Shown here piece after piece: positions 20,455 to 37,876 of a stretch of 64,000 bases of DNA (positions within the stretch are counted from its first letter, which is position 1; each line of letters starts with the position of its first letter). The DNA is from Oligoflexia bacterium. Lineage in GTDB: Bacteria; Bdellovibrionota; UBA1018; CAIMNF01. The translations under genes and the position numbers were made by a program. The stretch lies in NCBI GenBank assembly GCA_903845155.1, contig CAIMWN010000018.1, forward strand, positions 5,594-69,593, read 5' to 3'. Under the pieces are notes generated by a model that had not been told where the DNA came from, did not search any database, and worked only from the letters and a program-made list of their open reading frames with translations.

Positions 20455-20597
20455 TCTCCATTCCTTCTGAAATATTGTATCGGGCTGGACGTCCTTACTC
20501 AGTATGCCACGTCTGCAAAAAACATCCAATTTTTCGTTGGGTTCCTAAGATTTTGTGCATTGGCTTTTCTGAATGAGTGTTAGAATGGAAGGTATTA

Positions 20598-21557
20598 ATG
20601 ACGAATCGCAATCAAATGATGCTGCTCATCGCCGTCTTCGCTCTGGGTGGATATTATCTTTTCAATACACCCACGCCGAGTCCCCCTGTTGGGGTGACCG
20701 AAATTGCGCAACCGCAACCGGAAGCGCCAGAAATGACGCCAAAATTGAAATTGAATGCCGCAACTGTTAAGCAAGCGCGAGGCATTCAGTTGAGTGGGAA
20801 GTCGGCAGAAGTCAGTCAATTCCTGCCTTCTGAGGTTCCTCAAGGAAAAGTAAATCCGCGATATACTAATAAGCCGAGCGATATGACTGTTGAATTCGAA
20901 GAGATTGACGGTCAAGCGGTGGCTTTTGGTGACACCATTATCGGTAATTTAAGTAAAGACTTTACTGAGAAAAAGGGCATTACTGAAATGTTCATTCCCA
21001 AGTACTGGGACAAAGGGATTGTTCCGTATGCCATTCAGGCAACGGCGCCTCACCAAGATATGATTCAACAAGCGATCGATTATTTTAATAAAAATACTTC
21101 GATTAAATTTGTTCCCTATACAGGGCAAGACGATGCAATTGTTTTCGTAAAAGGGGAGGAGCACTGTCTCTCCTATTTGGGACGGACAGGGGGAACTCAA
21201 CCCATTTATATTTCTGGCTTGTGTGGAACTCATGAGATTCTTCATGAGCTGATGCATGCACTTGGTTTCGTCCATGAGCAATCCAGGCCAGATCGCGATC
21301 AGTATGTGGATATTTTCTGGAACCAGATTCAGGAAAAATATCAGGCACAATTTGCCATGGTTCCTGAGGTATTTATGCAAAGTTATTTCGGCTCGCCCTT
21401 TGATGCAGGTTCCATTATGATGTATAGCTCGCATGCTTTTGGAGTGAGCCCTGAGGCAGTCACTCTTAAATTAAAAAATGGACAAGAAGTGAAGCAAAGT
21501 GCCGGAGGCTTAAGTTCGAGCGACATGGAGAGAGTGAATCGGCTTTATCAAAATTAA
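20598..21557 (+). CDS. Astacin-family (M12A) zinc metalloprotease, membrane-anchored or secreted
   Basis: HELMHALGFVHEQSRPDRD (HExxHxxGxxHE) plus Met-turn SIMMYS. N-terminal signal-anchor. ATG 20598 with SD ggaagg is preferred over the GTG at 20577. Confidence 0.85.
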   Translation: MTNRNQMMLLIAVFALGGYYLFNTPTPSPPVGVTEIAQPQPEAPEMTPKLKLNAATVKQARGIQLSGKSAEVSQFLPSEVPQGKVNPRYTNKPSDMTVEFEEIDGQAVAFGDTIIGNLSKDFTEKKGITEMFIPKYWDKGIVPYAIQATAPHQDMIQQAIDYFNKNTSIKFVPYTGQDDAIVFVKGEEHCLSYLGRTGGTQPIYISGLCGTHEILHELMHALGFVHEQSRPDRDQYVDIFWNQIQEKYQAQFAMVPEVFMQSYFGSPFDAGSIMMYSSHAFGVSPEAVTLKLKNGQEVKQSAGGLSSSDMERVNRLYQN

Positions 21558-21583
21558 TATGAAGAAATTAACGTGGAAATTTA

Positions 21584-22948
21584 ATGCTCTTTAATTCGAC
21601 GTCATTTATTTTTCTTTTCATGCCCTTGGTCTTGTTGATCACTAGCAAATTGCGTGGTCAAAATTGGGTGCGAGCCATTGCACTTTTTAGTCTCATTTTT
21701 TATGCGTTCGCAGGTCATGCGTGGTTTCTCATTCCGATGCTTTTTACTACGGTCCTCGATTTCTTTTTGGCAAAGGAAATGGAAAAGCCTAAAAATGGAG
21801 ATGCGCGGAAGTCTATTTTAGTGTTTTCCATTTGTGCGAACTTAAGCCTCCTTTTCTATTTTAAATACGCAGGTTTGTTCACTCATTTGTTGGGGATTTC
21901 GATAGCGGGGGTGATTCTTCCGGCCGGAATTTCATTTTATACCTTCCAAACTTTGTCCTATATGATTGATGTATACCGAGGGAGCGCGCGTGCCGAAAGG
22001 AACTTCTGGGTATTTTTGTCCTTCGTTTCCTTTTTCCCTCATCTCGTTGCCGGGCCACTCACTCGTCACCATCAGCTGATTCCTCAGTTAAAACGAAACG
22101 CTGAAATAAAAGTTACGCCGCTCTGGAAAGCAGGAGTGTTTCTTTTTGTGCTTGGGCTTTCGAAAAAGGTGCTGGTGGCCGATCAAATTGCCCACTTGAT
22201 TGACCCTGTTTTGGAGCAGCCAAACCTCATGAGTAATCTCGACTCCTGGTTCGCCCTCTTGGGATTTGCTTTTCAAATTTACTTTGATTTTAGTGGGTAT
22301 ACCGATATGGCCATTGGGCTTGGACGTTTGCTTGGGGTCGAACTCCCGCAAAATTTCAATGACCCTTATCGATCACTCAATCCTAGTGATTTTTGGAAAC
22401 GTTGGCACATCACGCTGAGTCAGTGGTTGCGTGACTATTTATATATTCCTTTAGGCGGCAATCGCTGCTCACCTGCAAGGCAAAGATTTAATCTTTTTAT
22501 GACTATGTTGCTCGGCGGATTGTGGCATGGCGCTAATTTTACCTTTGTCATTTGGGGTTTTTATCATGGACTCTTATTGGTTTTGTATCATCAGTTTCAG
22601 AAAAAATGGGATGGACTCTCACCTCCGAGTTCAAAAGTGTTCACATTCGTACTCATCACTTTTGGCTGGGTGTTTTTTCGTGCACGAAACCTGCATGAAG
22701 TGAGTATATGGTTTGGTCAATTATTCATTCCGTCACATCTTGCTTCACTGTTAAATCCTTTTGATTTGATCAAACTAGAATTATTACTGATCGTCGCTTT
22801 TGTAATGACCACAAAAGCCCGCAGTTATTCTAAGATTGAAGCATTTGAAAAAAGCAATGTTCCCTTTGAGTTTGCGCTAGGATTGCTCGCTGCGCTTGCT
22901 TTTTTTATGATGGCAACTTCATCTAAATTTATGTATTTTCAATTTTAA
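21584..22948 (+). CDS. MBOAT-family membrane O-acyltransferase (AlgI/DltB-like)
   Basis: Multi-TM protein with WHITLSQWLRDYLYIPLGGNR (conserved His block of MBOAT/AlgI). Confidence 0.85.
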   Translation: MLFNSTSFIFLFMPLVLLITSKLRGQNWVRAIALFSLIFYAFAGHAWFLIPMLFTTVLDFFLAKEMEKPKNGDARKSILVFSICANLSLLFYFKYAGLFTHLLGISIAGVILPAGISFYTFQTLSYMIDVYRGSARAERNFWVFLSFVSFFPHLVAGPLTRHHQLIPQLKRNAEIKVTPLWKAGVFLFVLGLSKKVLVADQIAHLIDPVLEQPNLMSNLDSWFALLGFAFQIYFDFSGYTDMAIGLGRLLGVELPQNFNDPYRSLNPSDFWKRWHITLSQWLRDYLYIPLGGNRCSPARQRFNLFMTMLLGGLWHGANFTFVIWGFYHGLLLVLYHQFQKKWDGLSPPSSKVFTFVLITFGWVFFRARNLHEVSIWFGQLFIPSHLASLLNPFDLIKLELLLIVAFVMTTKARSYSKIEAFEKSNVPFEFALGLLAALAFFMMATSSKFMYFQF

Positions 22949-24100: not shown

Positions 24101-25561
24101 GTGCGAAATACGATAGTTTTATACTTAAACGGCATACGCTGCGAGCTGAGCGGAGACCTCGCTTTCATGACGGTGTCCGATTATCTCCGCTATCAAAAGG
24201 GCCTTACTGGTACCAAGGTAGTATGTGCTGAAGGCGACTGCGGTGCTTGCACAGTGCTCGTGTCGCGGATGGTGAATGGCAAACTTGGATCATACCAATC
24301 GATCAACTCCTGTATTAGTTTTATGTATCTGCTCGATTTGTGTCACCTCATCACGGTAGAGGGCTTAAAAAAAGAGGAGACACTTCATCCGGTTCAAAAG
24401 GCAATGCTTGATTCTAATGGCGCTCAATGCGGGTATTGCACACCTGGATTTATTTGTGCAATGGCTGGCCTGACTGAAGATGCAAAAAATGGGAAATTTA
24501 TTTTGGAAGAAAAGCGAGTTAAAAACTATTTGACTGGCAACCTTTGTCGCTGCACCGGTTACGACTCTATTATTCAAGCCGGTTGCTCGGTGAATGCTGA
24601 AGCGGCTCCTTCATTGCGCGTACTGTACCAGGATGAAGAAATTGAAAAGGATTTAAAATCACTTTCGGGCCAAACAGTGTGCCTGAAAGGCGCCCAGCAA
24701 GAGTTTTGTGCCCCGGCGACTTTATCTGAAGCGCTGACATTAAAAAGTGTAAATGTGGATCTGAAGCTCACCTCAGGAGCGACAGATCTAGGTGTACTTT
24801 CTAATAAGGGAAAATTAAAATTATTAAAAACGCTCACCCTTAATCATGTGGATGAGCTGTATTCGGTAAAAGAGGACACATCTTCACTGATGGTTGGAGC
24901 TAAAGCCTCGTTGACAGCGGTGGAAGAGGCCTGCCGAACACTTTTCCCGGCATTTTCAAACTACCTTCACATTTTTGCTTCGCCTCAAATTAAAAATGCA
25001 GGCACCCTCATTGGTAATGTGGTGAATGCATCTCCGATTGCCGACACCATTCCATTTTTAAAAGTAGCAGAAGCAGAAATAGGATTGAGTAGCGTTCGCG
25101 GAGAAAGAGTGCTCAATCTCAATCAGTTTTTTAAACCCGGCTACAAACAGCTCGATCTTTTGCCTGATGAACTCGTGACGCATGTGAAAATTCCAAAATC
25201 CCATGCAAAGTTTAAACTTTATAAAGTTTCCACGCGCAAAGACCTAGATATTTCTACCGTTACCTTTGCCGTTCGTTTTGAGTTAGTAGGTGACATCATT
25301 AAAAATATTTCTTTTGCATTCGGGGGTGTGGGGCCGAGCGTACTGCGCATGACTGAACTTGAGAAACAAGCAATTGGCAAAAAATTCGAGCCCGCACTCT
25401 TTAAGGCGCTTGCTCTAAATTTGCAGTCTATGATCACACCGCTGAGTGATGTTCGCGGAAGTGCGGACTACCGTCAACTACTGTGTCACAATCTGATGCT
25501 TAAGTTTTGTGACGAAGTGACGGCTGAGCTGGGGCTCCAATCTGCGGGGATTTCGGTATGA
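24101..25561 (+). CDS. xdhA: Xanthine dehydrogenase small subunit (2Fe-2S + FAD-binding)
   Basis: Two [2Fe-2S] cysteine clusters (CAEGDCGACTV; CGYCTPGF...CRCTGY) followed by a FAD-binding CO-dehydrogenase-flavoprotein-like domain. GTG start. ATGA overlap with xdhB. Confidence 0.9.
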   Translation: MRNTIVLYLNGIRCELSGDLAFMTVSDYLRYQKGLTGTKVVCAEGDCGACTVLVSRMVNGKLGSYQSINSCISFMYLLDLCHLITVEGLKKEETLHPVQKAMLDSNGAQCGYCTPGFICAMAGLTEDAKNGKFILEEKRVKNYLTGNLCRCTGYDSIIQAGCSVNAEAAPSLRVLYQDEEIEKDLKSLSGQTVCLKGAQQEFCAPATLSEALTLKSVNVDLKLTSGATDLGVLSNKGKLKLLKTLTLNHVDELYSVKEDTSSLMVGAKASLTAVEEACRTLFPAFSNYLHIFASPQIKNAGTLIGNVVNASPIADTIPFLKVAEAEIGLSSVRGERVLNLNQFFKPGYKQLDLLPDELVTHVKIPKSHAKFKLYKVSTRKDLDISTVTFAVRFELVGDIIKNISFAFGGVGPSVLRMTELEKQAIGKKFEPALFKALALNLQSMITPLSDVRGSADYRQLLCHNLMLKFCDEVTAELGLQSAGISV

Positions 25562-27900
25562 GTGTCGGGAATAGTATTCCTCATGATTCAGGCTTGGGTC
25601 ATGTCTGTGGCGAAAGTGTTTTTATTGATGATCGTGCTGAAACTCGTGGTGAAGTACACGTGGGCTTAGTCTGTAGTTCCATTGCGTGCGGTGATTTAAT
25701 TGAAATAGATGCAAGTGAGGCACTCAGGCATCCCGATTGTTTAGGGGTATTTACCGCCAAGGATTTCGTGCATAAAAAATGGGGAACCATTGTCCATGAC
25801 CAACCATTTTTGGTGGAAGACAAAATAAATTATATGAGTGAGCCCGTTTGCATTGTGGCTAGCCGCACACGGGATTCCATTGAAGCAATTAAACATTTAG
25901 TGAAGTTACAGGAAAAAGCGGCAGCAGGTATTTTTACCATTCAAGATGCCAGGAAAAATCAGTCTGTGATTTACCGCGCACTGAAGCCTTTTGTACAAGG
26001 AAACGTGGATCAAGCATTGAAGATGGCCCCTCATAAGCTCACCGGAACGTTTACGGTGGGTGGGCAAGAACATTTTTATATGGAATCGCAAGCGGCGGTG
26101 ATTTACCCACTTGAGAATGGGCAACTTGAAATTCATTCATCAAGCCAACATCCCAGTGAAACTCAGCGTACCGTTGCCGAGGCTTTAGGTTTATCGCTTC
26201 ATCAAGTGGTGTGTGTGGTGAAGCGTATGGGCGGGGGTTTTGGTGGCAAGGAATCTCAGGCAGGCCCTATTGCGGCTTATGCTGCATTGGTCGCTCAAAA
26301 GTTAAAGAAACCTGCTCGACTCATTCTCACTAAAGATGAAGACATGAAAATTACGGGAAAAAGACACCCTTTTCAGAATGAGTACGAAGTCGCTTTCGAC
26401 GATGACGGTAAAATTCTAGGAGTGAAGGTACTACTTCAATCAGACGGAGGAGCGTACGCGGATCTTTCTGCCTCTATTCTCGATCGGGCGATGTTTCACT
26501 TCGATGGAGTCTATTATTTAGAGAACGTGCACATCGATGCTGTTTGTTATCGAACGAACAATCATTCGAATACTGCATTCAGAGGTTTTGGTGGTCCACA
26601 GGGAAACATGACCATGGAAAGCATTATCGAAGATATCGCACATTTTTTGAAAAAGGATGCAGCCGTCGTGCGACTTCGAAACCTTTATCAAGGTCCGAAC
26701 GTCAAAACCCCGTACGGACAAAATCTTGAAAACAATATGCTGCCTGAGATTTTTAGACAACTCATCACTACTTCGGAGTATGAAAAGCGCCGAGTGGAGA
26801 TTGATAAGGAAAATCTAAAAAAAACAGGGGTGCTTCGCGGGATTTCCATCACCGGCACAAAGTTTGGAATAGCCTTTACTGCGCGTTTCCTTAATCAAGG
26901 GAATGCCCTCGTCAATTTGCATTTGGATGGGACTGTACAGGTGAGCACTGGTGCGACTGAAATGGGCCAAGGCGTGAACACTAAGATTCAGCAAATCGTA
27001 GCGCATGGTTTTGGGATTGAATCCGGATCAGTTCAAGTGATGACGACTTCTACAGAGAAAAATCATAATACCTCGCCTACGGCAGCATCCAGTGGTTCTG
27101 ATATTAATGGGGCGGCAGCGCTGAAAGCGGTAAACAAGATTAAGGTGAATTTAATAGGGCTTGCTCGTAAGAAATTCGCCGGTGAAGTGAGTTCCGCATT
27201 GAAAGAGTATGAGTTAGAGCAGAACGCGGAAACCGTGCCTTTAGATCCGAATTTTATCTTTCAACATGGTAAAGTAGTGGAACTTTCCACCAAAAAGGAA
27301 ATCTCTTTAAAAGAGCTCATTAGCATCGCTTATCAAAATCGTGTTTCTTTAGGTGCCTATGCACATTTTAAAACTGGTGGCCTTGGGTTTGATAAAGAGA
27401 AAGTGGAAGGCAAAGCGTTCAATTATTTTACGCAAGGAATGGCCGTGAGCGAAGTTTCTGTTGATGAATATACCGGTGAAGTGAAGGTTTTACGTGTAGA
27501 TCTATTGATGGACCTGGGTCGTTCTATTAATCCCGGTATTGATCGCGGGCAAGTGGCGGGAGGCTTTGTGCAAGGGATGGGGTGGGTCACTACTGAAAAT
27601 CTTTTTTACGATGAAAGACGAAATCTTATTTCTCATTCTCCGACTACTTATAAAATCCCAAATATTCAAGATACGCCACGCGAATTTAATATTCATTTTA
27701 TTGAAAACCTAAATAACGACTGTAATGTGTACGGTTCAAAAGCCGTGGGGGAGCCACCACTCTTGTTGGGGTCAAGTGTGTGGACAGCCGTAAAACATGC
27801 GCTCAGTTATCGGTCGAAAAGCAACATGGTAAACCTCACATCTCCTGCGACGGGCGAAGTGGTGTTAATGGAATTGACTCGCTTAAAGAGGAGCCCTTGA
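25558..27900 (+). CDS. xdhB: Xanthine dehydrogenase molybdopterin-binding large subunit
   Basis: 780 aa; aldehyde-oxidase/xanthine-dehydrogenase a/b hammerhead and MoCo-binding blocks (GGGFGGKE, GQGxxTK). Confidence 0.9.
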   Translation: MSVGNSIPHDSGLGHVCGESVFIDDRAETRGEVHVGLVCSSIACGDLIEIDASEALRHPDCLGVFTAKDFVHKKWGTIVHDQPFLVEDKINYMSEPVCIVASRTRDSIEAIKHLVKLQEKAAAGIFTIQDARKNQSVIYRALKPFVQGNVDQALKMAPHKLTGTFTVGGQEHFYMESQAAVIYPLENGQLEIHSSSQHPSETQRTVAEALGLSLHQVVCVVKRMGGGFGGKESQAGPIAAYAALVAQKLKKPARLILTKDEDMKITGKRHPFQNEYEVAFDDDGKILGVKVLLQSDGGAYADLSASILDRAMFHFDGVYYLENVHIDAVCYRTNNHSNTAFRGFGGPQGNMTMESIIEDIAHFLKKDAAVVRLRNLYQGPNVKTPYGQNLENNMLPEIFRQLITTSEYEKRRVEIDKENLKKTGVLRGISITGTKFGIAFTARFLNQGNALVNLHLDGTVQVSTGATEMGQGVNTKIQQIVAHGFGIESGSVQVMTTSTEKNHNTSPTAASSGSDINGAAALKAVNKIKVNLIGLARKKFAGEVSSALKEYELEQNAETVPLDPNFIFQHGKVVELSTKKEISLKELISIAYQNRVSLGAYAHFKTGGLGFDKEKVEGKAFNYFTQGMAVSEVSVDEYTGEVKVLRVDLLMDLGRSINPGIDRGQVAGGFVQGMGWVTTENLFYDERRNLISHSPTTYKIPNIQDTPREFNIHFIENLNNDCNVYGSKAVGEPPLLLGSSVWTAVKHALSYRSKSNMVNLTSPATGEVVLMELTRLKRSP

Positions 27901-27902
27901 GC

Positions 27903-28703
27903 ATGGAACAGAGTCTCCCTCAGTTTTGCGAGCGCTTTTTAGAGCTTTATCAAAATAAAACTCCGATGGTAGTCGTGACCCTAACCGATATGGTAGGACA
28001 TGCACCGCAAGATGTAGGCGCAAGAATGATCGTCGGAACGGACGAAATTTATTTCGGGACCGTGGGCGGCGGTAAGCTTGAAAAGCGTTGTATTGATTTA
28101 TCACGCGAGTTTCTAACATCAAAAATTCCAATTAAAAATCAGTCCCATCAATGGAACCTGCCACGCGATATTGGAATGACTTGCGGTGGAGAGGTGACCC
28201 TTTATTTTGAAACTTATAAACCTGAAGAGACGTGGAAGATTGCAATCTTTGGTGCGGGACATATTTCTCAGGAGTTAGTCCCCATATTGCTAAAATTAAA
28301 TTGTGAACTAACCGTCGTTGATCCGAGGCCAGAGTGGTTAAGTCGATTGCCCCATTCTCCTCGTTTGAAGAAGATTCAAGAAGAGAATATGCCGCTAGTG
28401 CTAGAGACTTTAGATTCGAACACTTTTGTTGCCATCGTGACCATGGGGCACGCGACCGACTACCCATTGGTGAAGCTAGCACTTGAAAAACATCATTTTC
28501 CCTATCTAGGAGTCATTGGAAGTAAAGTGAAGAGAATTAAAATGAACGCAGATTTGATAGCGAGCGGAATTCCTGAAAAGCTAGCTAAAGAGGGATTTTA
28601 TTTACCCATGGGTGAAGATTTCGGCAGAAACACACCGGCCGAAATTGCCTTAAGTATTGTGGCGCAATTGTTGAAAACAAGAGATCAGCTCTTCAATCCG
28701 TAG
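27903..28703 (+). CDS. xdhC: XdhC-family molybdenum-cofactor insertion chaperone
   Basis: XdhC/CoxI N- and C-terminal Rossmann-like halves (VVVTLTDMVGHAPQDVGARMIV...GGG...IFGAGHISQELV). ATG 27903 with SD aagaggag is preferred to the ORF-track start at 27780, which would overlap xdhB by 120 nt. Confidence 0.8.
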   Translation: MEQSLPQFCERFLELYQNKTPMVVVTLTDMVGHAPQDVGARMIVGTDEIYFGTVGGGKLEKRCIDLSREFLTSKIPIKNQSHQWNLPRDIGMTCGGEVTLYFETYKPEETWKIAIFGAGHISQELVPILLKLNCELTVVDPRPEWLSRLPHSPRLKKIQEENMPLVLETLDSNTFVAIVTMGHATDYPLVKLALEKHHFPYLGVIGSKVKRIKMNADLIASGIPEKLAKEGFYLPMGEDFGRNTPAEIALSIVAQLLKTRDQLFNP

Positions 28704-31700
28704 ACATGCATGCGGTTGATGCCGCCGTCCGGATATACCGTTACTTTGATTTGCTTAAATTCCTGTGAAGAGTGAATTCTAAATTCTATTTTATTCCCAG
28801 CATATGCTTTCACATTGGTTTTGGGAACGAGGATGTTCCATTGATCGCCGCCTGAAAGTGTCAGACCCTGAAGACTCAACTCAAAGGGATTATTGTTTCT
28901 AAAAAATGTAAAATCAATTTCAATGCGATGAATTTGAGAAGGGCGCCCCAGTTCAACAGTTACTTCTTCGAAGTGTCCCTTCGTTCTGCTTCTTGCTGAC
29001 TCGGATCCATCAAACATATTTACCGGAGGATAAGGCGAGATCATTTGCACTGCAGGACTGTAATGTTCGTTCGTGGCACCCGTAATTTTTCCTCCATAGG
29101 CGAGGCATGCAAGATCTACCTCAGCACCTTCAGGTAAGCGATCCCAATTCTGTTGAATGGTAGTAGGTGTGGCATTGTATTTGGGTGTCAGTGGCCGCAC
29201 CGGGTGCGGAATGGGATCAGGAAAAAGAATATTCTTTGCTTGATCTAATGGCTGAAAGTTAATTTTATCTTGTTCGGGCAGTGATTCATTAAATAGGCCC
29301 ACACGCGACAAGCCCCCGTCTGGATACATGGATACGCGAATAGTTTTGTAGGTGGTGTCATCCTTTGCGAGTTGCACTTGCTTTAAAGAGTGACCTTCTA
29401 GTTTCAATTTAGGTAAGATTACTTTCCACTGGTCTGATCTAATATCTAGGCCTTCAATCGTGACGGCCTCGGGATGATTTCCTTGATGAAATTGAGTAGA
29501 GAGTGAAACAAAGTGGATTGGAGAAGGTTTCTTCAATTGAAAGGTAAGACTGTCTCGAGGGTCGTGTGCAGGTTTGTAATTATGTCTGACGCTCTCCCAG
29601 CTATCCATGATTTTCCCCTGACGGCCATACAGTTCGGGATCAAATATAGGAAGGTTCGGCGACAAAAGGTTTTCAGCTCGTGCAAAACGCTCGTTGGTGA
29701 CCTCCAGTATTTTACTTCCTACCGCTAAGTTGAAGGGAGCCAGTGGGTCGGGCGTTCCTTTGATGGTGATTGCTTCTGGCTGGTCTGGTTTAAACGCTTC
29801 AAAAATAAGCCTTTTGTAGCCTAAATTCACTATTTCTTCCTGAGGAATGCTTGAGGTGTCGAAGTCAGATTTGAAAAGGGTGGTGTCCACTCCTTGAAAA
29901 TTGAGCTCCTTTAAAATAAGTTGTGCGGCCTCTGCAATAAACAGAACGCCTTTTGTGTCTGCATTGCACAGGATAACAAAGCCGAGTCCTCGATCTGGCC
30001 CCGAAAAACATTGAACAAAGAGACCACGAAAACCATCATTTGCTCCTTGATGAATGGCGAAGCGATTTGGGCCCGCTTCAGCAATAAAAACACCTAATCC
30101 AATATTCACTCCCATGAACTTCTGACTCAAGCGATCTTGGTCACCCAGCATCTGTATCGCCGTATCGTGCGAAATAGGACCTGAGCCCTTGATTGAATGG
30201 AAACTCTCGGTGAGCTTGCTTAAAAATGAAGCCATGTCTGAGGCAGTACCCATAGCACCGGCTGCAAAAGCTGGAAACTTCTTGCGGGTGCCTTTGACGG
30301 GCTCGCCTGAATCCAAATAACCATGAGCATAGTCAATGCCGGGAATTGTATTTTGCTCAAAGCTTAAATGGTGAAGCCCCAGTTCTTTGAAAAAATCTTG
30401 GGTCATTTCTTGAATACTCTTTTGTTCTAGTGATTCCAAGAGATGCTCGAGCACCAAGAACCCTCCGCCTGAGTATTGAAACGCAGAACCCGGTTCATGA
30501 AGTACGCCCACTTTGGGATATCCGTATTTTTGGTTGCCACTGAGAAGTTCCGAAATGCGAGGCATGGGCTCGTCCGCGGGAATCCCATTCACATAGTGCA
30601 TGTTTAATGCATTATGCTTCATCAGGTTTGCAAGTGTCACTTGGTTAGCCCACTCTGGACTATTTTTGTCCAAGGATTCTAATCTAAATGAAGAAGTGGA
30701 CTGTTCAAAAACGGAATTAACAGGAGTCGAAAGCGAAATGCCATTCTTTCTAAAATACTCAAGTGCAAAGGCGCTTGCCATCGTCTTGCTTAAGGATGCA
30801 AGCTCAAACCAAGTGTGCTCACCAACTCGTTCTTTCCCTCGCTGGCGATCACCAATGCATATGTTTTGTTTCGTCGTCAACGAGGTATTCACCGTGATGG
30901 TGGCGCCATTGACTTGGTAGCGAAGAAGTAATTGATTTAACTTTTCATGAAGATTTAAAAACGGCAGTTTCTTCAGCCTCTTGAGGCTGATTTCCCATAA
31001 AGCATTTCTTGCTTGAACGAGCTCCAGTTCCTGGGTGCTTTGTAAGCGCGTATTTAAATCAGCAAGTATCTCGGCGCTCGATTTTCCTTCTGCAGAAATG
31101 AGGTACTTAAACCCAAACTTCTTCAAGTAGCGGTCGCCCAATGCACGAAGTTCGGCCTGTGTCTCGGCGCCAGCTTTTAAAACAAGTGCTTGTTCTTGAG
31201 ATGCGACTTCATCGAGAGTTTTCTTGCTTTCGCCAATATTCCCGTGAAAGCTTGCGGCATGAAGGATGTCATCTAGGGTAAAGTTTTTTATAATCGTTTC
31301 AGCCTTCACCAAATCAACCGTGAGGTCAGAAGCAAGCGGGTGGGCAAACGAAACGCTTCCGCATATAGAAAAGTATTCGTTAAAACGTTGAATGTAATCT
31401 GTGCATAGAAACTTCTCAGGATCCAGTTTAGTCACGACATTCCAAGGGTCGCTTTCATTTCTGATTGACTCGACAGTAAACGGCAGTAAGAGTTCAGTTG
31501 CGAATTCGGGAGGGTGGGAACTTGTCATGAGTTTGATCATGATTTTCATTGCGATCCCGTACCATTTTTCAGTTCTTTCATCCCATTTCACTTGAACGAT
31601 TTTCTGAGCGTTCGATAAGTCTTTCCGAATGAAGAGCATTTCCTCATGAATAATTTTCAAGAATGCATCGATGCTAAATCGCCCATGATGAATCTCGTGC

Positions 31701-33433
31701 CAAACTTCCCAACGCGAGCGCTCCGCAGTGGCGAGGTCATCCATCACTCGTACAGAAACTCCATTGATGGTTGCAGGAAGTGCAACGCAGCCACGGCCTG
31801 ATAGCCAGTCGGTAAGGTACTGGAGTGATTGAAATACATTATAGCGGATTTCTTCGCTGTCGTTATTCGCTATAAATGGTGATTCCTTCATGTCGGCTAC
31901 AATTAATGACCGAGGATAGAGTGGGTGATGAGTGTCGAGGCCCACTATGTCTTTCCCGTGTATAAAACTCATCATGTCAGCGTGGTGCTCTTTTACTAGT
32001 AAACCTTCCACCATTTTTTGAAGAGGAGCAGAATCATTTTGTTGATGAAGTTCCCATGCGCGAACCAAGGCGAGTCCAATGCGAATAAAGTCTGGGTGGG
32101 CGACCCAAAAACCACTCAAGCCGCGCTTAAGCTGTGTGATCACATCTCTCATAAAACCTTTAATCGTCATTTGAAATGAGGCGCTCAGGCGATCATCGTC
32201 GATGGAAAGAATGCCATACATGCCGCCAATCTTAATCCCACCTCTTGAGCCCACCACTTCAGTGAGAAGATCGTGTGAGGCTTTGATGCATTTAATTACA
32301 ATATTCGGATCAGCCTTTACGGGAATTCGATAGTTTGAGTCCTCTCTAAATAAGCGTGCCGTTGAAGCGAGGTAGTCATGCCAACCAAGAGATGCACCAG
32401 CGAAGTAGGGATAGAGTGCGTCCATAATCTCATTCACGCGAAAGATCGCACGCGGATTTTCTAAAACGAGGAGTAAACGGATACTGCCCAACTTGTACGC
32501 GGAATGACGATTTTTGAGGAGTTTTTCTGTCGTTTCCACCATGTGATGAATGTAAAGAGCATCTTCTTCATTTTCTAGCTTGGGCACATAGAAGGTGAGG
32601 GCGGCTTCGTTTTCCCAATGTTTAAAACAATGGAGAGCAAAATCGTATAAGTGTAAAGGGATTGGTTGCTCACGGTAAAATAAGAAGGTGCAAGGCAGCG
32701 CGAGACCCGGAAAGCGTTTAATAGGAAGGGTGAGCCGTTCGCTTTCAATTTTGTAGGTTTTGTTATTTTTTGAGTCTGTAAAGCTTAAGCTCTGGTCGTA
32801 ACAGGCGTTCAGATTCATTGCTGCCGCGATTAAATCCTGTCGGATAGGCGTTTTTGAATCTTCATCATCCGCGCCCCATTTAGGAAGATCAGTGCTAGTT
32901 TCAAGCAATTCAGAAATAATGCTCGGTTCATCTTTGAGTTTACGATGAAAGGCATTCATCGCGTTGATACAGAGTTTTGCGTTATCGGGTGGACCAAAGA
33001 GAGTAACGTGATTTCCGCTCAAGTGCTTCGGAATAGGCGCAATGGGTTTGCCATAACCGCGTGTGCAGTAGTGTTCGTTTTTCGGCCCAAGCACAGTGCG
33101 GCCGTTTCCGTCTTCGTGGCTGATGACGGTTTCATATCGTGGATCCAGTAAATCAATTCCGAGTGTGCGATTGAGTTCGCTGCAAGCGCGCGTTCGTTGA
33201 TCAATAAATTGTCGATCTTGAGTGCGTTGAGAGAGTGTTGCAGCCAATTGCCCTTTCACGCCATCGTAAAGTTCGCATAAAAACTGAAGCGAAGATTGGG
33301 TCTCAAGGCCTCCACCTTTGCCTACTTCGCGAAGTTCAGGAATATTCGTAACGGGCTGGCTCTCAGCCAATAACTTGGAAAGAAGGGCCGGAGTAATATA
33401 ATCTTGATAATAGGGGATCTCTCGCTGTTTCAT
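28685..33433 (-). CDS. Four-module purine-catabolism fusion protein: malate-synthase-like / OHCU decarboxylase / serine beta-lactamase-fold hydrolase / allantoicase (two repeats)
   Basis: Uninterrupted 1582-codon ORF. aa 1-640 match malate synthase A blocks (VTLFGPPDNAKLCINAMNA; IRLLLVLENPRAIFRVNEIMDALYPYFAGASLGWHDY; FWVAHPDF). aa 650-825 match OHCU decarboxylase (SFHGNIGE; KKFGFKYLISAEGKSSAEILADLNTRL). aa 840-1180 carry SxxK (ASLSK), YxN (HYVNG) and HxG (IHQGANDG) of the beta-lactamase/PBP fold. aa 1200-1582 carry two allantoicase repeats (MDSWESVRH; GSESARSR) each ending YPDGG...R. ATGA-coupled to hiuH upstream. Confidence 0.8.
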   Translation of the reverse strand: MKQREIPYYQDYITPALLSKLLAESQPVTNIPELREVGKGGGLETQSSLQFLCELYDGVKGQLAATLSQRTQDRQFIDQRTRACSELNRTLGIDLLDPRYETVISHEDGNGRTVLGPKNEHYCTRGYGKPIAPIPKHLSGNHVTLFGPPDNAKLCINAMNAFHRKLKDEPSIISELLETSTDLPKWGADDEDSKTPIRQDLIAAAMNLNACYDQSLSFTDSKNNKTYKIESERLTLPIKRFPGLALPCTFLFYREQPIPLHLYDFALHCFKHWENEAALTFYVPKLENEEDALYIHHMVETTEKLLKNRHSAYKLGSIRLLLVLENPRAIFRVNEIMDALYPYFAGASLGWHDYLASTARLFREDSNYRIPVKADPNIVIKCIKASHDLLTEVVGSRGGIKIGGMYGILSIDDDRLSASFQMTIKGFMRDVITQLKRGLSGFWVAHPDFIRIGLALVRAWELHQQNDSAPLQKMVEGLLVKEHHADMMSFIHGKDIVGLDTHHPLYPRSLIVADMKESPFIANNDSEEIRYNVFQSLQYLTDWLSGRGCVALPATINGVSVRVMDDLATAERSRWEVWHEIHHGRFSIDAFLKIIHEEMLFIRKDLSNAQKIVQVKWDERTEKWYGIAMKIMIKLMTSSHPPEFATELLLPFTVESIRNESDPWNVVTKLDPEKFLCTDYIQRFNEYFSICGSVSFAHPLASDLTVDLVKAETIIKNFTLDDILHAASFHGNIGESKKTLDEVASQEQALVLKAGAETQAELRALGDRYLKKFGFKYLISAEGKSSAEILADLNTRLQSTQELELVQARNALWEISLKRLKKLPFLNLHEKLNQLLLRYQVNGATITVNTSLTTKQNICIGDRQRGKERVGEHTWFELASLSKTMASAFALEYFRKNGISLSTPVNSVFEQSTSSFRLESLDKNSPEWANQVTLANLMKHNALNMHYVNGIPADEPMPRISELLSGNQKYGYPKVGVLHEPGSAFQYSGGGFLVLEHLLESLEQKSIQEMTQDFFKELGLHHLSFEQNTIPGIDYAHGYLDSGEPVKGTRKKFPAFAAGAMGTASDMASFLSKLTESFHSIKGSGPISHDTAIQMLGDQDRLSQKFMGVNIGLGVFIAEAGPNRFAIHQGANDGFRGLFVQCFSGPDRGLGFVILCNADTKGVLFIAEAAQLILKELNFQGVDTTLFKSDFDTSSIPQEEIVNLGYKRLIFEAFKPDQPEAITIKGTPDPLAPFNLAVGSKILEVTNERFARAENLLSPNLPIFDPELYGRQGKIMDSWESVRHNYKPAHDPRDSLTFQLKKPSPIHFVSLSTQFHQGNHPEAVTIEGLDIRSDQWKVILPKLKLEGHSLKQVQLAKDDTTYKTIRVSMYPDGGLSRVGLFNESLPEQDKINFQPLDQAKNILFPDPIPHPVRPLTPKYNATPTTIQQNWDRLPEGAEVDLACLAYGGKITGATNEHYSPAVQMISPYPPVNMFDGSESARSRTKGHFEEVTVELGRPSQIHRIEIDFTFFRNNNPFELSLQGLTLSGGDQWNILVPKTNVKAYAGNKIEFRIHSSQEFKQIKVTVYPDGGINRMHVYGLKS

Positions 33434-33753
33434 GTGCCTCGATAGGTGGAGTATCCAAACGGGTTCAGTAAAAGTGGAACGTGATACTTTCGTTGAGTGT
33501 TTTCTACTTTAAAGATAACGGGTATGTCTTGGAAGAAGCATTCGGTAGATTTATTTTTAAAATAGTTTTCAATCTCAAAAATGATTTGATAAATCCCAAC
33601 ATTCTTTTCGATATCAAAGGAAAATCGGCCGTCCGCATTGGTCGTTCCCGCAGCGAGAGTGGTCCATTGGCCGCCATTTTTGATGAGCAACTTCACGGTG
33701 ACTCCAGAGGCAGCGGTTCCGAGACTCGTATCTAAAATATGAGTGCTGATCAT
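33430..33753 (-). CDS. hiuH: 5-hydroxyisourate hydrolase (transthyretin-like)
   Basis: 107 aa. N-terminal STHILDTSLGTAASGV and C-terminal ...YRGT (HIUase signature is YRGS). Confidence 0.8.
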   Translation of the reverse strand: MISTHILDTSLGTAASGVTVKLLIKNGGQWTTLAAGTTNADGRFSFDIEKNVGIYQIIFEIENYFKNKSTECFFQDIPVIFKVENTQRKYHVPLLLNPFGYSTYRGT

Positions 33754-33756
33754 TTC

Positions 33757-35366
33757 TTACTCCTTCTTAAACGAAAAATCTAAATTAATGGTTTCATTCT
33801 CTTTGACGGAAACTTTTTTAGACTGATTGCCAAATACTTCATGCCACGCTTCAAGGGTGTATTCACCTACGGGGATGTTCTTGATGATGAACTCTCCGGC
33901 ATCATTGGTCACGCTGTAAAAGGGATGATCCATTACTGCGATCGATGCACTCATCCAAGGATGTACGCTACATTTCGTCTGTACAAAAATCTCAGGGTGA
34001 TTGAAAATCTTGGTGACCCGATCATCTTTGCTTGGCATCGCAACATTGAAATTCTCATTCTGACTGGTGATTGATTTCACATTGTGAAATGTCGCATCGC
34101 TGTTGATGAAATCCACCTTTTGCCCCACACGTACGGCAATGACTCGAGGTTCATATTGGCAATTTTTTTGATCCAGAATTGCCGCTACGGCAGGCACGTC
34201 ATGATATTCTTTGCCTTCAAGGCCCTTCGAGATTCGGACAAGGACGTTTTTTAGTTTTCCATTGTTGATCATGATGTCGTTGGCGTAAGTGTCGCTTTTA
34301 TTTTGTTGTGCACAAATGAGTGGAAGTTGAAGTTTCTCACCGTGAAGTGCGGGACCATTAAACAGAGCTAATCCTTTAATGGTGCCAGTGGGGCCATTCG
34401 CTGCAGCCGATGGTTCAGTTGCTGGTGTATTCGTTGCAGTTGCTGCAAGGGGTGCCGAGTTCTCGTGGGTAAAGAAAATCACGCCAATGATCAATGCAAC
34501 TCCCACTAAACCAAACGCTTTAGATCGAGGTGGATTCTTTAAGCGCACCACGAAGAATTCCCGAATGGCTGCTCCCGCTGCACTCATTAACAAAAGAATG
34601 ATCCAATTGTATTGGTTTCCGTAAGTGGACGGAAAATGATTGCTGAGCATGATGAAGATCACGGGAAGCGTGAAGTAGGTATTATGGGTAGAACGATTTT
34701 TTGCGTTTTTCCCCCATTCCTGATTCACGGGCTCGCCTCTTTTAGACGCTTCCACCATTTTCAATTGGCGAGGAATAATGCGTAGAAAAACGTTGGCCGT
34801 CATCCAAGTACCGAGCATGCCGCCGATATGAATATAGGCAGCTCTACCGCTGAGTGTATGGCAGAGAAAATATGCCATCCCGCCAAACCAAAGGAGGGTG
34901 AGGGCGTGCGCAAGAACCGGAGTGGTTTTTGAAAATTTGGATTCCCATAAAAAATCATAAAAGAGCCAAGAACCCACCAGTGAGATGACACTCAGACCAA
35001 CCGCCTGAAAAAACGTAATGTGAGAGAGACGGAAGCGTCGAGAAGAAAAGTGCCACTTCCGGCGTAGAAAATCATGCAGATCAAAAAAATTCCGCTGAGC
35101 CAGGTCCAGTATGACTCCCATTTGAACCAATGGAGTGATTCAGGAACTTTGGTAGGGCCCATGAGAAGTTTCTCTACGTGGTAAAATCCACCACCATGAA
35201 CCATCCACAACTCACCCACATGTCCGTCTTTTTTTGATAGCTCATTGAACTCAATGGTGCGATCCAGCCACATGAAAAAGATGGAAGTTCCAATCCACGT
35301 AATGGCGACGGTAATATGAAGCCAGCGTCCTAGTAAAAGTAGCCAATCAAATAACTCTTGATCCAC
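33757..35366 (-). CDS. puuD: PuuD-like integral-membrane urate oxidase with C-terminal cupredoxin (type-1 copper) domain; apparent +1 frameshift in an A6/T6 run
   Basis: The N-terminal 124-aa ORF (GTG 35366, SD gagggg) reads WLHITVAITWIGTSIFFMWLD...GELWMVHGGGFYH...LHWFKWESYWTWLSG, as recalled for the Urate_ox_N/PuuD family. The membrane domain continues in another frame (ORF 33757-35130) after the run at 35009-35014. One extra base joins ...SVSLTLRFF|QAVGLSVISL... seamlessly. The C-terminus has His-x37-Cys-x2-His-x2-Met (FHNV...CSVHPWM), an amicyanin-like copper site, with no CxxCH. Confidence 0.5.
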
Positions 35367-35433: not shown

Positions 35434-36753
35434 ATGCCCGGGCAAAATTACCGCTTCTTTCTCGCTAGTATTTTAAATCCAAAAAACGACACCAAGTGCG
35501 ATTATTTTGCGCATGGGATGTTGGTCGTTTGCGATCAGGGTAAACAGAGCTTCATTGAGGCCGTTCTCCCGTTCAATAAGGGCATGAAAAAATACTCAAG
35601 ACTCATGACCACCGCCAATACCACTGATTTTGGGAGTGCGGTGATCATGCCCGGATTCTTTGATATGCACTTTCATTGGGTGCAAGATGATGTTCGCACG
35701 CAACCCAAGGACTCTCTGCTTGAGTGGCTTGAAAAGTATACCTTTCCCGCTGAAATGAAATTTGCAGATCCAAAATATGCTGCAAGTGAGGCCAAGATTT
35801 TTTTCAAACGCTTGAGTCGAGTTGGCACATTGGGTGGCGCTTGTTATAGTTCTATTCACGGTCCGGCGCTGGAGTGCGCGATGAGTGAAGTGAAGGGGGA
35901 TTTCGTCATTGGGAATGTGCTGATGGATCAGTTTTCTCCGCCTGAGCTTACTCAGACGGAGGCTGAGGCAATTGCGCTCACCAAGAAGATGATTCGAAAG
36001 TTTGGGAGGAGATTTGCGTTTACCCCTCGCTTTGCAATCAGCACCTCGCCAGCGCTGATGAAAAAAGGAAGTAAGCTTGCCGACCAAGCTCATTGTTTTA
36101 AACAAAGTCACTTGTCAGAAAATCCGGCAGAAATTGAATTTGTTTTGAAACTCTATAAAAAGTTACCGGGTTACAAAAAGTGTTCCTCTTATACAGATAT
36201 ATACAAAAAGACAGGAATGCTCGGCAAGCGTTCACTGATGGGGCATGGTATTCATCTTTCCAGTGCAGAATTAAAAATGCTCCATGAAACAAAAACCACG
36301 CTCATTCATTGTCCAACCTCGAACGCGCCGATTCGAGAAAAGGGTCTTGGTTCTGGGCTTTTTGATTTCAAACGGGTTGAAAGAGCGAAAGTGCGTTGGG
36401 CACTTGGTTCCGATATTGGTGGCGGCCCCTTTTTATCGATGTTTGATGTGATGAGAAGTTTTGTGATTCAAAATAAGCGAGCCAAGGTGAAAGGTGCCAC
36501 TTTTGTAAAGGCGTTGTACCGTTCCACGCTCTCGGGTGCCGAGGTTTTTGGAATTGCTGCAAAGACTGGAAATTTAAATCGGAAGAAGGAAGTAAATTTT
36601 ATCGTCGTGCCGTTGAATGCTTCAAAGCCCCCCCATTCCGCGGAGGATGCATTGAAGCGCATTATCAATGCCCCAAAGGCGAAGCGAGAGTTGTTTGATC
36701 AGCTGCCGAGCGTAGTTTACTACCGCGGCAAACCTATCGTGAATCAAGCGTAG
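35434..36753 (+). CDS. guaD: Guanine deaminase
   Basis: Collinear with E. coli GuaD: PGFFDMHFHWVQ, SLLEWLEKYTFPAE, FTPRFAISTS, HLSENPAEIEFV, HCPTSN, LGSDIGGG. Confidence 0.85.
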   Translation: MPGQNYRFFLASILNPKNDTKCDYFAHGMLVVCDQGKQSFIEAVLPFNKGMKKYSRLMTTANTTDFGSAVIMPGFFDMHFHWVQDDVRTQPKDSLLEWLEKYTFPAEMKFADPKYAASEAKIFFKRLSRVGTLGGACYSSIHGPALECAMSEVKGDFVIGNVLMDQFSPPELTQTEAEAIALTKKMIRKFGRRFAFTPRFAISTSPALMKKGSKLADQAHCFKQSHLSENPAEIEFVLKLYKKLPGYKKCSSYTDIYKKTGMLGKRSLMGHGIHLSSAELKMLHETKTTLIHCPTSNAPIREKGLGSGLFDFKRVERAKVRWALGSDIGGGPFLSMFDVMRSFVIQNKRAKVKGATFVKALYRSTLSGAEVFGIAAKTGNLNRKKEVNFIVVPLNASKPPHSAEDALKRIINAPKAKRELFDQLPSVVYYRGKPIVNQA

Positions 36754-36838: not shown

Positions 36839-37876
36839 TTAGAATTTAATATTCCGAACGTAGTGACAACTATATCCTTTTTTGCCCTTTTTCTCTAAAT
36901 CAGCAAGATAGTTTTGATGATGCTCTTCTGCTCTCCAAAATTTGGTAAAAGGCACAATTTCAGTGACGACAGGCGCTTTCCATACTTTGGCGGTTTCAAC
37001 ACGCGCTTTCATTTTTATAGCAGCATTCTTTTGGGCTTCGCTCTCATAAAAAATGGCGGAGCGATACTGACTGCCAATATCGTTCTCTTGTCGATCTTTG
37101 GTGGTTGGATCATGCATTTTAAAAAAGAGGACTAGTAAGTTTTCGTAAGTCGTCACCTTAGGATCAAAAAGAATTTGAACTGATTCTGCATGTCCGGTCG
37201 TCCCGCTGGATACGTCTTCGTAACTCGGGTCAGATTTAGTGCCACCGGTGTATCCGGTTTGAGTTTCAATGACTCCGGGTTGGGTTTGAAGTAAATGTTC
37301 CATTCCCCAAAAACAGCCTCCTGCGAGGGTTGCAATTTCCCAGTGCTTCTTTTTGGCAAACATAAAAAGGAATCTCCCATTTCCAGTTTCTTTGAGTTTA
37401 TCGAGAGGTATGAATTTCATCGCTCCTGAATTGATGCAGAACCGTTGCCCACCTTTGTCTTTTGGTCCGTCATCAAACACGTGTCCCAAATGAGAGTCAG
37501 AACTGCTCGAGAGTACTTCGTTTCGATCGTCGAGAAGCGAGGTGTCTTTTTTAATGTTCACTTTTTTGTCGGTAATCGGTCTGGTAAAGCTTGGCCAACC
37601 GGTGCCCGAATCATACTTATCGATCGAACTAAAGAGGGGTTCGCTCGTTACGAGATCGACGTAAATGCCATCCTCGTGGTTGTTCCAGTAGGCATTATGA
37701 AAGGGTTGTTCCGTACCTGCCTCTTGCGTGATGCTGTATTGTTCAGGAGTGAGTTTCTTTTTCAGTTCGCTTTTCGATGGAAGGCCGCTTCCAGAGAAAG
37801 CAAAGAGGGGGAGGATGACTGCTGCTGCAACTAGTATTGTTTTAATTAATCTTTTTTTCATATTTACGCTCCACAA
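36839..37876 (-). CDS. msrAB: Secreted bifunctional methionine sulfoxide reductase MsrB-MsrA
   Basis: Signal peptide. MsrB block (GTGWPSF...RFCINSGAM) followed by MsrA block (GGCFWGMEH). Confidence 0.9.
   Translation of the reverse strand: MWSVNMKKRLIKTILVAAAVILPLFAFSGSGLPSKSELKKKLTPEQYSITQEAGTEQPFHNAYWNNHEDGIYVDLVTSEPLFSSIDKYDSGTGWPSFTRPITDKKVNIKKDTSLLDDRNEVLSSSSDSHLGHVFDDGPKDKGGQRFCINSGAMKFIPLDKLKETGNGRFLFMFAKKKHWEIATLAGGCFWGMEHLLQTQPGVIETQTGYTGGTKSDPSYEDVSSGTTGHAESVQILFDPKVTTYENLLVLFFKMHDPTTKDRQENDIGSQYRSAIFYESEAQKNAAIKMKARVETAKVWKAPVVTEIVPFTKFWRAEEHHQNYLADLEKKGKKGYSCHYVRNIKF

Follow-up and report, generated by a model that had tools for sequence, protein, structure and literature searches.

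The subject of this analysis is an open reading frame (ORF) on the minus strand of a 64,000 nt window from an Oligoflexia bacterium (positions 5,594 to 69,593 of contig CAIMWN010000018.1, assembly GCA_903845155.1). This ORF, at 28685..33433, encodes a protein of 1582 aa in which Pfam identifies four modules: a malate-synthase-like (MSL) module, a 2-oxo-4-hydroxy-4-carboxy-5-ureidoimidazoline (OHCU) decarboxylase, a serine beta-lactamase fold and an allantoicase, the last being the type of enzyme that has (S)-ureidoglycolate and urea as its products. A preliminary description of the sequence had equated the MSL module with 31514-33433, the first 640 residues; these all belong to it, but the module reaches to about residue 690.

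31364..33433, minus strand: MSL module, residues 1-690 of the 1582 aa fusion (Pfam MS_TIM-barrel and MS_C, AF2 model, Foldseek, hhalign)
30959..31336, minus strand: OHCU decarboxylase module, about residues 700-825 (Pfam PF09349, span 710-821, E 7.6e-20)
29819..30949, minus strand: serine beta-lactamase-fold module, a candidate allantoinase, about residues 829-1205 (Pfam PF00144, span 861-1163, E 9e-25)
28685..29758, minus strand: allantoicase module of two repeats, about residues 1226-1582 (Pfam PF03561, span 1239-1579, E 2.6e-52)

The malate-synthase-like module and its bacterial relatives

Membership of the malate synthase superfamily is evident from the TIM-barrel domain (MS_TIM-barrel, PF01274; residues 242-456, 66.0 bits against a gathering cutoff of 26.4) and the C-terminal plug (MS_C, PF20659; residues 526-646, 39.3 bits against a cutoff of 23.1), both of which score above their Pfam gathering thresholds. 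Of the relatives with solved structures, E. coli malate synthase A (MSA), PDB entry 3cuz, scores best (phmmer E 2.9e-28), and an AF2 model built on 69 homologues (pLDDT 94.7, pTM 0.94) predicts a fold of the type found in MSA and malate synthase G (MSG). The top four Foldseek matches to this model were all MSA structures, from E. coli and B. anthracis (template modelling (TM) scores of 0.82-0.84 on the target, 21-23% identity), followed by MSG; the E. coli entries 3cv2 and 3cuz ranked highest (TM 0.82-0.83 on the target, 23% identity). The module has the same N-terminal helices, TIM barrel and C-terminal plug as AceB, the E. coli MSA (PDB 3CUZ/3CV2; EC 2.3.3.9), and shares its catalytic Arg and Asp, Mg2+ ligands, Trp365 and, apart from Thr95, its acetyl-coenzyme A (CoA) pocket.

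However, it is only about 23-28% identical to MSA and about 150 residues longer; Arg276-Trp277 of AceB is replaced by Trp-His, Thr95 by Phe and Ala331 by Tyr, and the constraint on Asp362 is relaxed. With 137.7 bits, the module also falls well short of the cutoff of 594.5 set for TIGR01344, the MSA equivalog model. The MSA block Arg276-Trp277-Asp278, in which Arg276 and Trp277 are found in 100% and 99% respectively of 125 canonical MSAs, reads Trp-His-Asp in 184 of 184 family members, and a PROSITE-style signature of MSA matches AceB but none of 192 family members. Further invariant differences from MSA are Thr95Phe, Ala331Tyr, His361Leu and Asn359Arg, together with an insert of roughly 20 residues after the CoA helix; the remodelled glyoxylate site has acquired, besides the Trp-His pair, Tyr406 and the newly invariant Arg437, Arg451 and Arg562.

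The relatives of the module form a discrete family. Among 1.84 billion cluster representatives, 95 matched it at E<=1e-30, whilst canonical MSAs reached only about 1e-20 to 1e-27, and all bootstraps (100%) separated the family from a set of 18 diverse MSAs. Relatives were found in the genomes of 410 species, when one genome per species was scanned, and a metagenome scan added a further 267; the source annotations call these proteins 'malate synthase', 'aldolase/citrate lyase family protein' or 'hypothetical protein'. Conservation was assessed over 192 family sequences, drawn from 120 database homologues and the MSL genes of the loci found in genomes. A homologue search with AceB itself gave only enterobacterial sequences of at least 84% identity, which are of little use for judging conservation, and the diverse MSAs used for comparison were obtained from other searches. 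Our literature search found no paper describing a bacterial Trp-His-Asp family. The MSL module belongs to a distinct and apparently undescribed bacterial clade of the superfamily; for annotation, the Trp-His-Asp signature cleanly separates this clade from the malate synthases of the glyoxylate shunt.

Active site and acetyl-CoA pocket

The positions of the module that correspond to functional residues of AceB are as follows.

32951..33007, minus strand: strand beta-1, loop and helix VTLFGPPDNAKLCINAMNA, residues 143-161, equivalent to AceB V92-EITGPVERKMVINALNA109, the acetyl-CoA adenine/pantetheine loop (hhalign and HMM alignment)
32714..32716, minus strand: Arg240, equivalent to AceB Arg166, the catalytic acid (alignments; kept in all family sequences with a residue at this position, one being gapped)
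32459..32461, minus strand: Glu325, equivalent to AceB Glu250, an Mg2+ ligand (alignments; invariant)
32375..32383, minus strand: Trp351-His352-Asp353, Asp353 being equivalent to AceB Asp278, an Mg2+ ligand (invariant in 184 of 184 family sequences)
32213..32227, minus strand: GGMYG, residues 403-407, Met405 being equivalent to AceB Met330 (invariant in 192 sequences)
32090..32122, minus strand: GLSGFWVAHPD, residues 438-448 (phmmer, HMM and hhalign alignments)
31787..31789, minus strand: Cys549, equivalent to AceB Cys438, an active-site Cys of MSA and MSG (invariant in the family; C or A in canonical MSAs)
31712..31753, minus strand: VRVMDDLATAERSR, residues 561-574, Asp566 being equivalent to AceB Asp447, the true catalytic base (phmmer, HMM and hhalign alignments)

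The preliminary description had paired GLSGFWVAHPD with GHDGTWIAHPG of AceB and read the change from His-Asp to Leu-Ser as the loss of the catalytic Asp. The pairing itself is real: three independent alignments (phmmer against PDB 3cuz, the family hidden Markov model (HMM) against AceB, and a profile-profile hhalign comparison with a probability of 100, an E value of 6e-41 and 493 columns) set the block opposite G360-H361-D362-G-T-W365-I-A-H368-P369-G, with Leu439-Ser440 in place of His361-Asp362. However, it is tempting but mistaken to see the GHDGTW block as that of the catalytic Asp. In E. coli MSA the role of catalytic base falls to Asp447, which corresponds to Asp631 in MSG (PMC3112382); Asp447 lies within LMEDAATAEISR, to which the query stretch VMDDLATAERSR aligns, and its counterpart here is Asp566, with a beta-hairpin in front of it that exceeds that of MSA by 8 residues. 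The catalytic acid, which polarises glyoxylate and the enolate, is Arg338 in MSG, corresponding to Arg166 in MSA, and the Mg2+ ligands are Glu427 and Asp455 in MSG, corresponding to Glu250 and Asp278 in MSA (PMC3112382). Their equivalents Arg240, Glu325 and Asp353 are, like Asp566, invariant across 184-192 family sequences, bar the one gapped row at Arg240, so the profile alignment runs contrary to the loss of the base. The core blocks of MSA noted in the preliminary description are indeed present, although the range of 32414-32476 that it gave for the Mg2+-ligand region covers only the block containing Glu325 (LLVLENPR, nt 32450-32473) and not LGWHDY (nt 32372-32389), which contains Asp353. 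Within GLSGFWVAHPD, Trp443 and Pro447 are equivalent to Trp365, which in AceB lies beside glyoxylate's aldehyde carbon, and to Pro369, against which the adenine stacks (PMC3112382); Trp443, His446 and Pro447 are invariant in all 192 family sequences.

Position 440 is variable within the family, being Asp in 75 sequences, Thr in 50, Ser in 39 and Asn or Gln in the remainder, with Ser or Thr prevailing in fused proteins and Asp in stand-alone ones. Amongst the 125 diverse canonical MSAs, Asp362 is conserved in 97%, His361 in only 49% (Phe occurring in 43%), and the genuine MSG of E. coli has Ala530-Asn531 at these two positions; hence the His-Asp pair is dispensable for malate synthase chemistry. 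The interpretation of Leu-Ser as a loss of function was consequently rejected, given that family members vary at this position, that MSG has Asn there and that the base lies elsewhere. Arg276 and Asp362 occur together only in MSA, both being absent from MSG (Phe453 and Asn531) and from the family (Trp351 and the variable position 440). We infer from this covariation, rather than from a structural result, that Asp362 partners Arg276 and is free to vary once the latter is replaced.

As judged from the alignments, the module is catalytically intact, no catalytic residue having been lost. That it is a disabled domain which only binds glyoxylate-like ligands, no longer performing the Claisen condensation, as originally suggested, is therefore scarcely credible: in its favour is the substitution of a residue as strongly conserved in MSAs as Asp362, but the alignment contradicts it through the invariant base, Asp566, as do the full activity of MSG with Ala530-Asn531 and the modest conservation of His361.

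The second substrate of malate synthase is bound in MSA by a pocket comprising Ile94, Thr95, Gly96, Met102, Met330, Pro369 and Cys438, of which Met330 contacts the mercaptoethylamine arm of acetyl-CoA (PMC3112382). In a global hmmalign alignment between AceB and the family HMM, the N-terminal CoA loop remained unaligned, but local HMM alignment and hhalign resolved it, giving Leu145, Phe146, Gly147, Met or Leu154, Met405, Pro447 and Cys549 as the respective equivalents, with Lys or Arg153 corresponding to AceB Lys101. In the loop itself, Thr144, Leu145, Phe146, Gly147 and Pro148 are kept in 190-191 of 192 family sequences, whilst residue 153 is Lys or Arg and residue 154 Leu or Met. The pocket equivalents are about 100% conserved, compared with a mean column identity of about 39% over the family alignment, and in at least four named phyla the pocket residues, together with Lys or Arg153, are either unchanged or replaced conservatively, the invariant Phe146 in place of Thr95 being the sole non-conservative change. 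This disparity between the pocket and the rest of the alignment is the chief reason for thinking that CoA-thioester chemistry has been retained. A rare variant of the four-domain fusion (P0271, 1506 aa, with cluster members P0402 and P0403) is missing the CoA-loop region and has the changes Cys438Asn and Met445Val; it may represent a secondary loss of CoA binding.

Genomic context and the ureidoglycolate step

The surroundings of the MSL gene were annotated at 167 loci with jackhmmer, using reference proteins from the window, E. coli K-12 and related loci. At 117 of these, the module is fused to (87) or adjacent to (30) genes of the urate/allantoin pathway, the partners being PuuD or uricase, 5-hydroxyisourate (HIU) hydrolase, OHCU decarboxylase, an allantoinase, and either allantoicase or AllC with AllE. 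Isocitrate lyase was at none of the 167 loci, and nor were the glycolate oxidase subunits GlcE and GlcF, in searches with AceA, GlcE and GlcF. Nearly all the fusions consist of MSL, OHCU decarboxylase, beta-lactamase-fold and allantoicase modules, encoded beside HIU hydrolase and PuuD or uricase, and often xdhABC; their hosts are Bdellovibrionota and some Phycisphaerales and Planctomycetia. The remaining 80 loci have a stand-alone MSL gene, and the 30 of these with adjoining ureide genes fall into four further architectures.

MSL, PuuE, PuuD, allantoicase-OHCU decarboxylase, HIU hydrolase (Myxococcales)
PuuD, HIU hydrolase, allantoicase-OHCU decarboxylase, AllB, MSL
xdhCBA, AllC, AllE, uricase, AllB-OHCU decarboxylase, HIU hydrolase, MSL
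ABC transporter, MSL, AllE-like, AllC-like, GntR (Desulfobulbales)

Domain fusion in these clusters takes several forms. One locus (L100:1838-4414) encodes an 858 aa protein with OHCU decarboxylase N-terminal to MSL, two encode allantoicase-OHCU decarboxylase fusions of about 505 aa (L002:12554-14074 and L089:6569-8092), and another encodes a 626 aa fusion of the allantoinase AllB with OHCU decarboxylase (L086:7723-9603).

Common to all five architectures is that each step of the pathway has an enzyme except the cleavage of ureidoglycolate, whilst MSL is the only gene without a step. An AllA-type ureidoglycolate lyase was found at none of the 167 loci, either with jackhmmer or with phmmer using E. 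coli AllA even at E<1, and AllD was likewise found at none. When all the unassigned neighbouring ORFs in the loci were clustered and then compared with Pfam, no other recurrent lyase candidate emerged, the recurring families being only molybdenum cofactor biosynthesis genes, a deaminase, sensor kinases and unrelated syntenic genes. The remark in the preliminary description that the step from ureidoglycolate to glyoxylate is otherwise missing from the cluster thus holds for known ureidoglycolate-cleaving enzymes both in the window and across the related loci. The AllA/DAL3 lyase (EC 4.3.2.3) has a cupin fold, unrelated to the TIM barrel of MSL and with no sequence similarity to it, and the fusion protein has no Pfam match to this cupin (PF04115); MSL probably occupies the same pathway position by non-orthologous displacement.

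The family is not the enzyme of the glyoxylate shunt. In Pseudobdellovibrionaceae metagenome-assembled genomes, a canonical Arg-Trp-Asp malate synthase of 563 aa, named 'aldolase/citrate lyase family protein' by the source, is encoded directly upstream of isocitrate lyase (L177:8001-10999). Such a pairing is typical of the glyoxylate shunt and distinct from the ureide-linked clade, and hence the shunt enzyme of this lineage is a different protein.

Malate synthase genes are known from other purine or allantoin clusters, namely DAL7 of yeast and glcB of Paraglaciecola, but these are canonical MSA or MSG enzymes accompanied by a dedicated lyase, DAL3 or AllA (PMC10120013). The MSL genes would resemble them in being malate synthase paralogues dedicated to ureide-released glyoxylate, and differ in forming a divergent clade with no accompanying lyase. 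The family could accordingly be a synthase only, a divergent isoform using purine-derived glyoxylate in the manner of DAL7, with ureidoglycolate cleaved spontaneously, through a side activity of allantoicase or AllE, or by a lyase encoded elsewhere. Such precedents, the intact catalytic, metal and CoA residues and the merely moderate stability of ureidoglycolate (PMC3793230) all fit this proposal. Nevertheless, we consider it unlikely, as the published cases have their lyase alongside, the Arg276-Trp277 pair invariant in MSAs has been remodelled to Trp-His at the glyoxylate site, the family's nearest outside relatives are allantoicase fusions that have no CoA site, and some clusters combine AllC, AllE and MSL and lack allantoicase altogether. 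A CoA-dependent reaction on a ureide intermediate or another 2-oxo or 2-hydroxy acid, unrelated to either ureidoglycolate cleavage or malate formation, would account for the remodelled glyoxylate site (Trp-His, Tyr406 and the new invariant Arg437, Arg451 and Arg562) and for stand-alone genes in loci of at least 10 kb without ureide neighbours; it is very improbable, however, as the gene contexts suggest no candidate substrate and the bookkeeping of the pathway leaves exactly the ureidoglycolate step open.

Relationship to ureidoglycolate lyases

A precedent for the recruitment of the superfamily to this step exists in eukaryotes, where malate-synthase-like proteins are ureidoglycolate lyases (UGLs), as established for the zebrafish protein DrMSL (Dembech et al. 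2023, PMC10120013). In DrMSL, Arg276 is replaced by Ile and Trp365 by Met, the acetyl-CoA site is unconserved and malate synthase activity is absent; the UGL group, which is further marked by an insertion of two residues where the glyoxylate and CoA sites meet, was described as purely eukaryotic (PMC10120013). The bacterial module, compared with the published description of DrMSL, is similarly tied to allantoicase and purine catabolism (117 of 167 loci), probably fills the ureidoglycolate step where AllA/DAL3-type lyases are lacking (0 of 167 loci), and keeps the glyoxylate site whilst replacing Arg276, a residue invariant in the 125 MSAs. It differs in having Trp rather than Ile at position 276, in retaining Trp365 and in its conserved CoA site, so that it lacks the Arg276Ile and Trp365Met changes and the degenerate acetyl-CoA site of the UGL group.

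The closest proteins outside the bacterial family form a small clade with a physical link to allantoicase. Three are fusions of a malate-synthase-like domain with allantoicase (P0311, 1038 aa; P0328, 1027 aa; P0409, 908 aa), and the fourth (P0389, 587 aa) is encoded 40 bp upstream of an allantoicase gene, on a 40-kb contig that also carries ESF1, DER1 and protein-kinase genes and is probably eukaryotic. Such fusions or adjacent pairs lie on metagenomic contigs of eukaryotic appearance (L172:10001-13003 and L174:540-3656), with ESF1, DER1 and protein-kinase neighbours. These allantoicase-linked proteins may fall within the published eukaryotic UGL group or next to it; no paper mentioning such fusions was found in the literature search. 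In common with the bacterial family, the four have Trp-His-Asp, Arg-Gly-Leu at positions 359-361, 'ERSR' after the catalytic Asp, a hairpin 8-9 residues longer than that of MSA, and the allantoicase link itself. They are about 29-33% identical to it and have two domains where the fusion protein has four, and in contrast to the family their CoA-pocket positions are unconserved, with Asp, Ala or Ser at Lys101, Ser or Phe at Met102, Asn, Tyr or Asp at His368 and Asn at Cys438. In a neighbour-joining tree of 403 alignment columns with E. coli MSG as the single outgroup, the catalytic residues of which were correctly aligned, the two clades grouped together against MSA in 87.5% of 200 bootstraps. 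The small clade is thus the probable sister of the bacterial family.

Hence Trp-His-Asp occurs with a CoA site in bacterial ureide clusters and without one in eukaryote-like allantoicase fusions, whilst the proven zebrafish lyase has Ile at position 276 and no CoA site. This pattern across the three groups points to an ureidoglycolate-handling lineage within the malate synthase superfamily.

Given that no other cleaving enzyme is present in the loci, that eukaryotic malate-synthase-like lyases provide a precedent and that relatives are fused to allantoicase, it is likely that the bacterial clade has a role in ureidoglycolate metabolism, one that probably supplements malate synthase chemistry and does not replace it. 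The suggestion in the preliminary description of a repurposed enzyme is therefore partly borne out by the genomic context, although loss of catalysis was the wrong reason for proposing it. The interpretation we tentatively favour, at somewhat less than even odds, is that the clade supplies the exit enzyme of the urate/allantoin pathway, accepting ureidoglycolate from allantoicase, releasing urea and condensing the resulting glyoxylate with acetyl-CoA. In the fusion protein, (S)-ureidoglycolate produced by the allantoicase module of the same polypeptide would bind at the Mg2+/glyoxylate site, and urea would be eliminated by the ureidoglycolate lyase chemistry of the eukaryotic malate-synthase-like proteins. 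Glyoxylate and acetyl-CoA would then be condensed by the Claisen machinery of Asp566 and Arg240 to give malate and CoA, making the fusion a route from OHCU towards malate on one polypeptide.

A more far-reaching version, which we regard as possible but doubtful, is that the Trp-His-Asp clade is a bifunctional lyase and synthase that converts ureidoglycolate and acetyl-CoA to malate and urea without free glyoxylate. It would then be a living counterpart of the ancestor envisaged by Dembech et al., and the allantoicase-linked malate-synthase-like lyases of eukaryotes would have in it their prokaryotic sister or source, so that their lineage would no longer be purely eukaryotic; in Bdellovibrionota, one 1,580-residue polypeptide would lead from OHCU to malate.

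The MSL proteins might instead be lyases only, cleaving ureidoglycolate as does zebrafish DrMSL and making no malate, with the CoA-pocket residues serving structure, regulation or another ligand. This proposal draws on the published precedent (PMC10120013), the absence of AllA from the loci, the related allantoicase-fused clade that keeps Trp-His-Asp having lost the CoA residues, and the rare fused variant P0271, which lacks the CoA loop and has Cys438Asn. However, it leaves unexplained the near-complete conservation of the CoA pocket in the 192 sequences, when the same positions have drifted in the proven lyase-only clade (PMC10120013), and we judge it rather unlikely.

A number of observations weigh against a combined ureidoglycolate and malate synthase role. 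Ureidoglycolate decays spontaneously to glyoxylate and urea (PMC3793230), hence a lyase is not strictly required, and the count of AllA genes covers the 167 loci and not copies of allA encoded elsewhere in the genomes. In the only pair tested, the activities are separate, a sea-anemone malate synthase having no lyase activity and zebrafish MSL no malate synthase activity, and a bifunctional enzyme was raised by Dembech et al. only for the ancestor of eukaryotic malate synthase and UGL (PMC10120013). Fifty of the 80 stand-alone loci have no ureide neighbours, including 22 with at least 10 kb of sequence; the neighbours here are heterogeneous, and spurious ORFs in high-GC sequence hamper their annotation. 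CoA binding is deduced from sequence, and the family has an invariant Phe in place of Thr95, which may contact pantetheine. The sister relationship derives from a distance tree with a single outgroup and from shared motifs, and raw scores place the small clade about equally near to canonical MSAs and to the bacterial family.

Were the favoured interpretation correct, the missing final enzyme of purine catabolism would be accounted for in several hundred bacterial species without AllA, from Bdellovibrionota, Myxococcota, Desulfobulbales, Planctomycetota and marine uncultured lineages. The change from malate synthase to ureidoglycolate lyase, a recent discovery in eukaryotes, would also be extended to bacteria, and the family is a directly testable candidate for its bifunctional intermediate.

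The candidate allantoinase and neighbouring genes

The beta-lactamase-fold module of the fusion protein (29819-30949) is a candidate for a new type of allantoinase. Across loci with allantoicase or AllC, 75 have the module without AllB or PuuE, 16 have AllB or PuuE without the module, four have neither and one has both. Its best PDB matches are AmpC-type (class C) enzymes (E 4e-9); the SxxK motif (as SLSK) and the class C Tyr are kept, whilst the Asn of Y-x-N is replaced by Gly and KTG reads HQG. The module was also considered as the ureidoglycolate enzyme and rejected, as its presence is mutually exclusive only with the known allantoinases.

Judging by their predicted products, the genes around the fusion are those of a purine-to-ureide catabolic cluster.

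33430..33753, minus strand: HIU hydrolase gene, upstream of the fusion gene (Pfam Transthyretin, E 1.2e-33)
33757..35366, minus strand: PuuD-type membrane urate hydroxylase, as two ORFs (Urate_ox_N profile)
24101..28703, plus strand: xdhA, xdhB and xdhC, encoding xanthine dehydrogenase and its maturation factor (Pfam)
35434..36753, plus strand: guanine-deaminase-like amidohydrolase (Pfam Amidohydro_1), which recurs beside the cluster in other loci

The stop codon of the HIU hydrolase gene overlaps the start codon of the fusion gene in the sequence ATGA at 33430-33433, an arrangement that suggests translational coupling. The urate hydroxylase, which almost all related loci encode as a single ORF of about 540 aa, is split here: positions 3-110 of the Urate_ox_N profile match the ORF 34992..35366 (124 aa) and positions 112-293 match 33757..35130 (457 aa). 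The same split (109 and 457 aa) is found at another locus (L164) with only about 67% DNA identity to the window, hence the two ORFs may be genuinely separate genes and not the product of a sequencing frameshift. Unrelated to the pathway are a fused MsrB-MsrA methionine sulfoxide reductase (SelR and PMSR), an astacin-family metallopeptidase and an MBOAT acyltransferase, encoded in the flanking regions 36839-37876 (minus strand) and 20577-22948 (plus strand).

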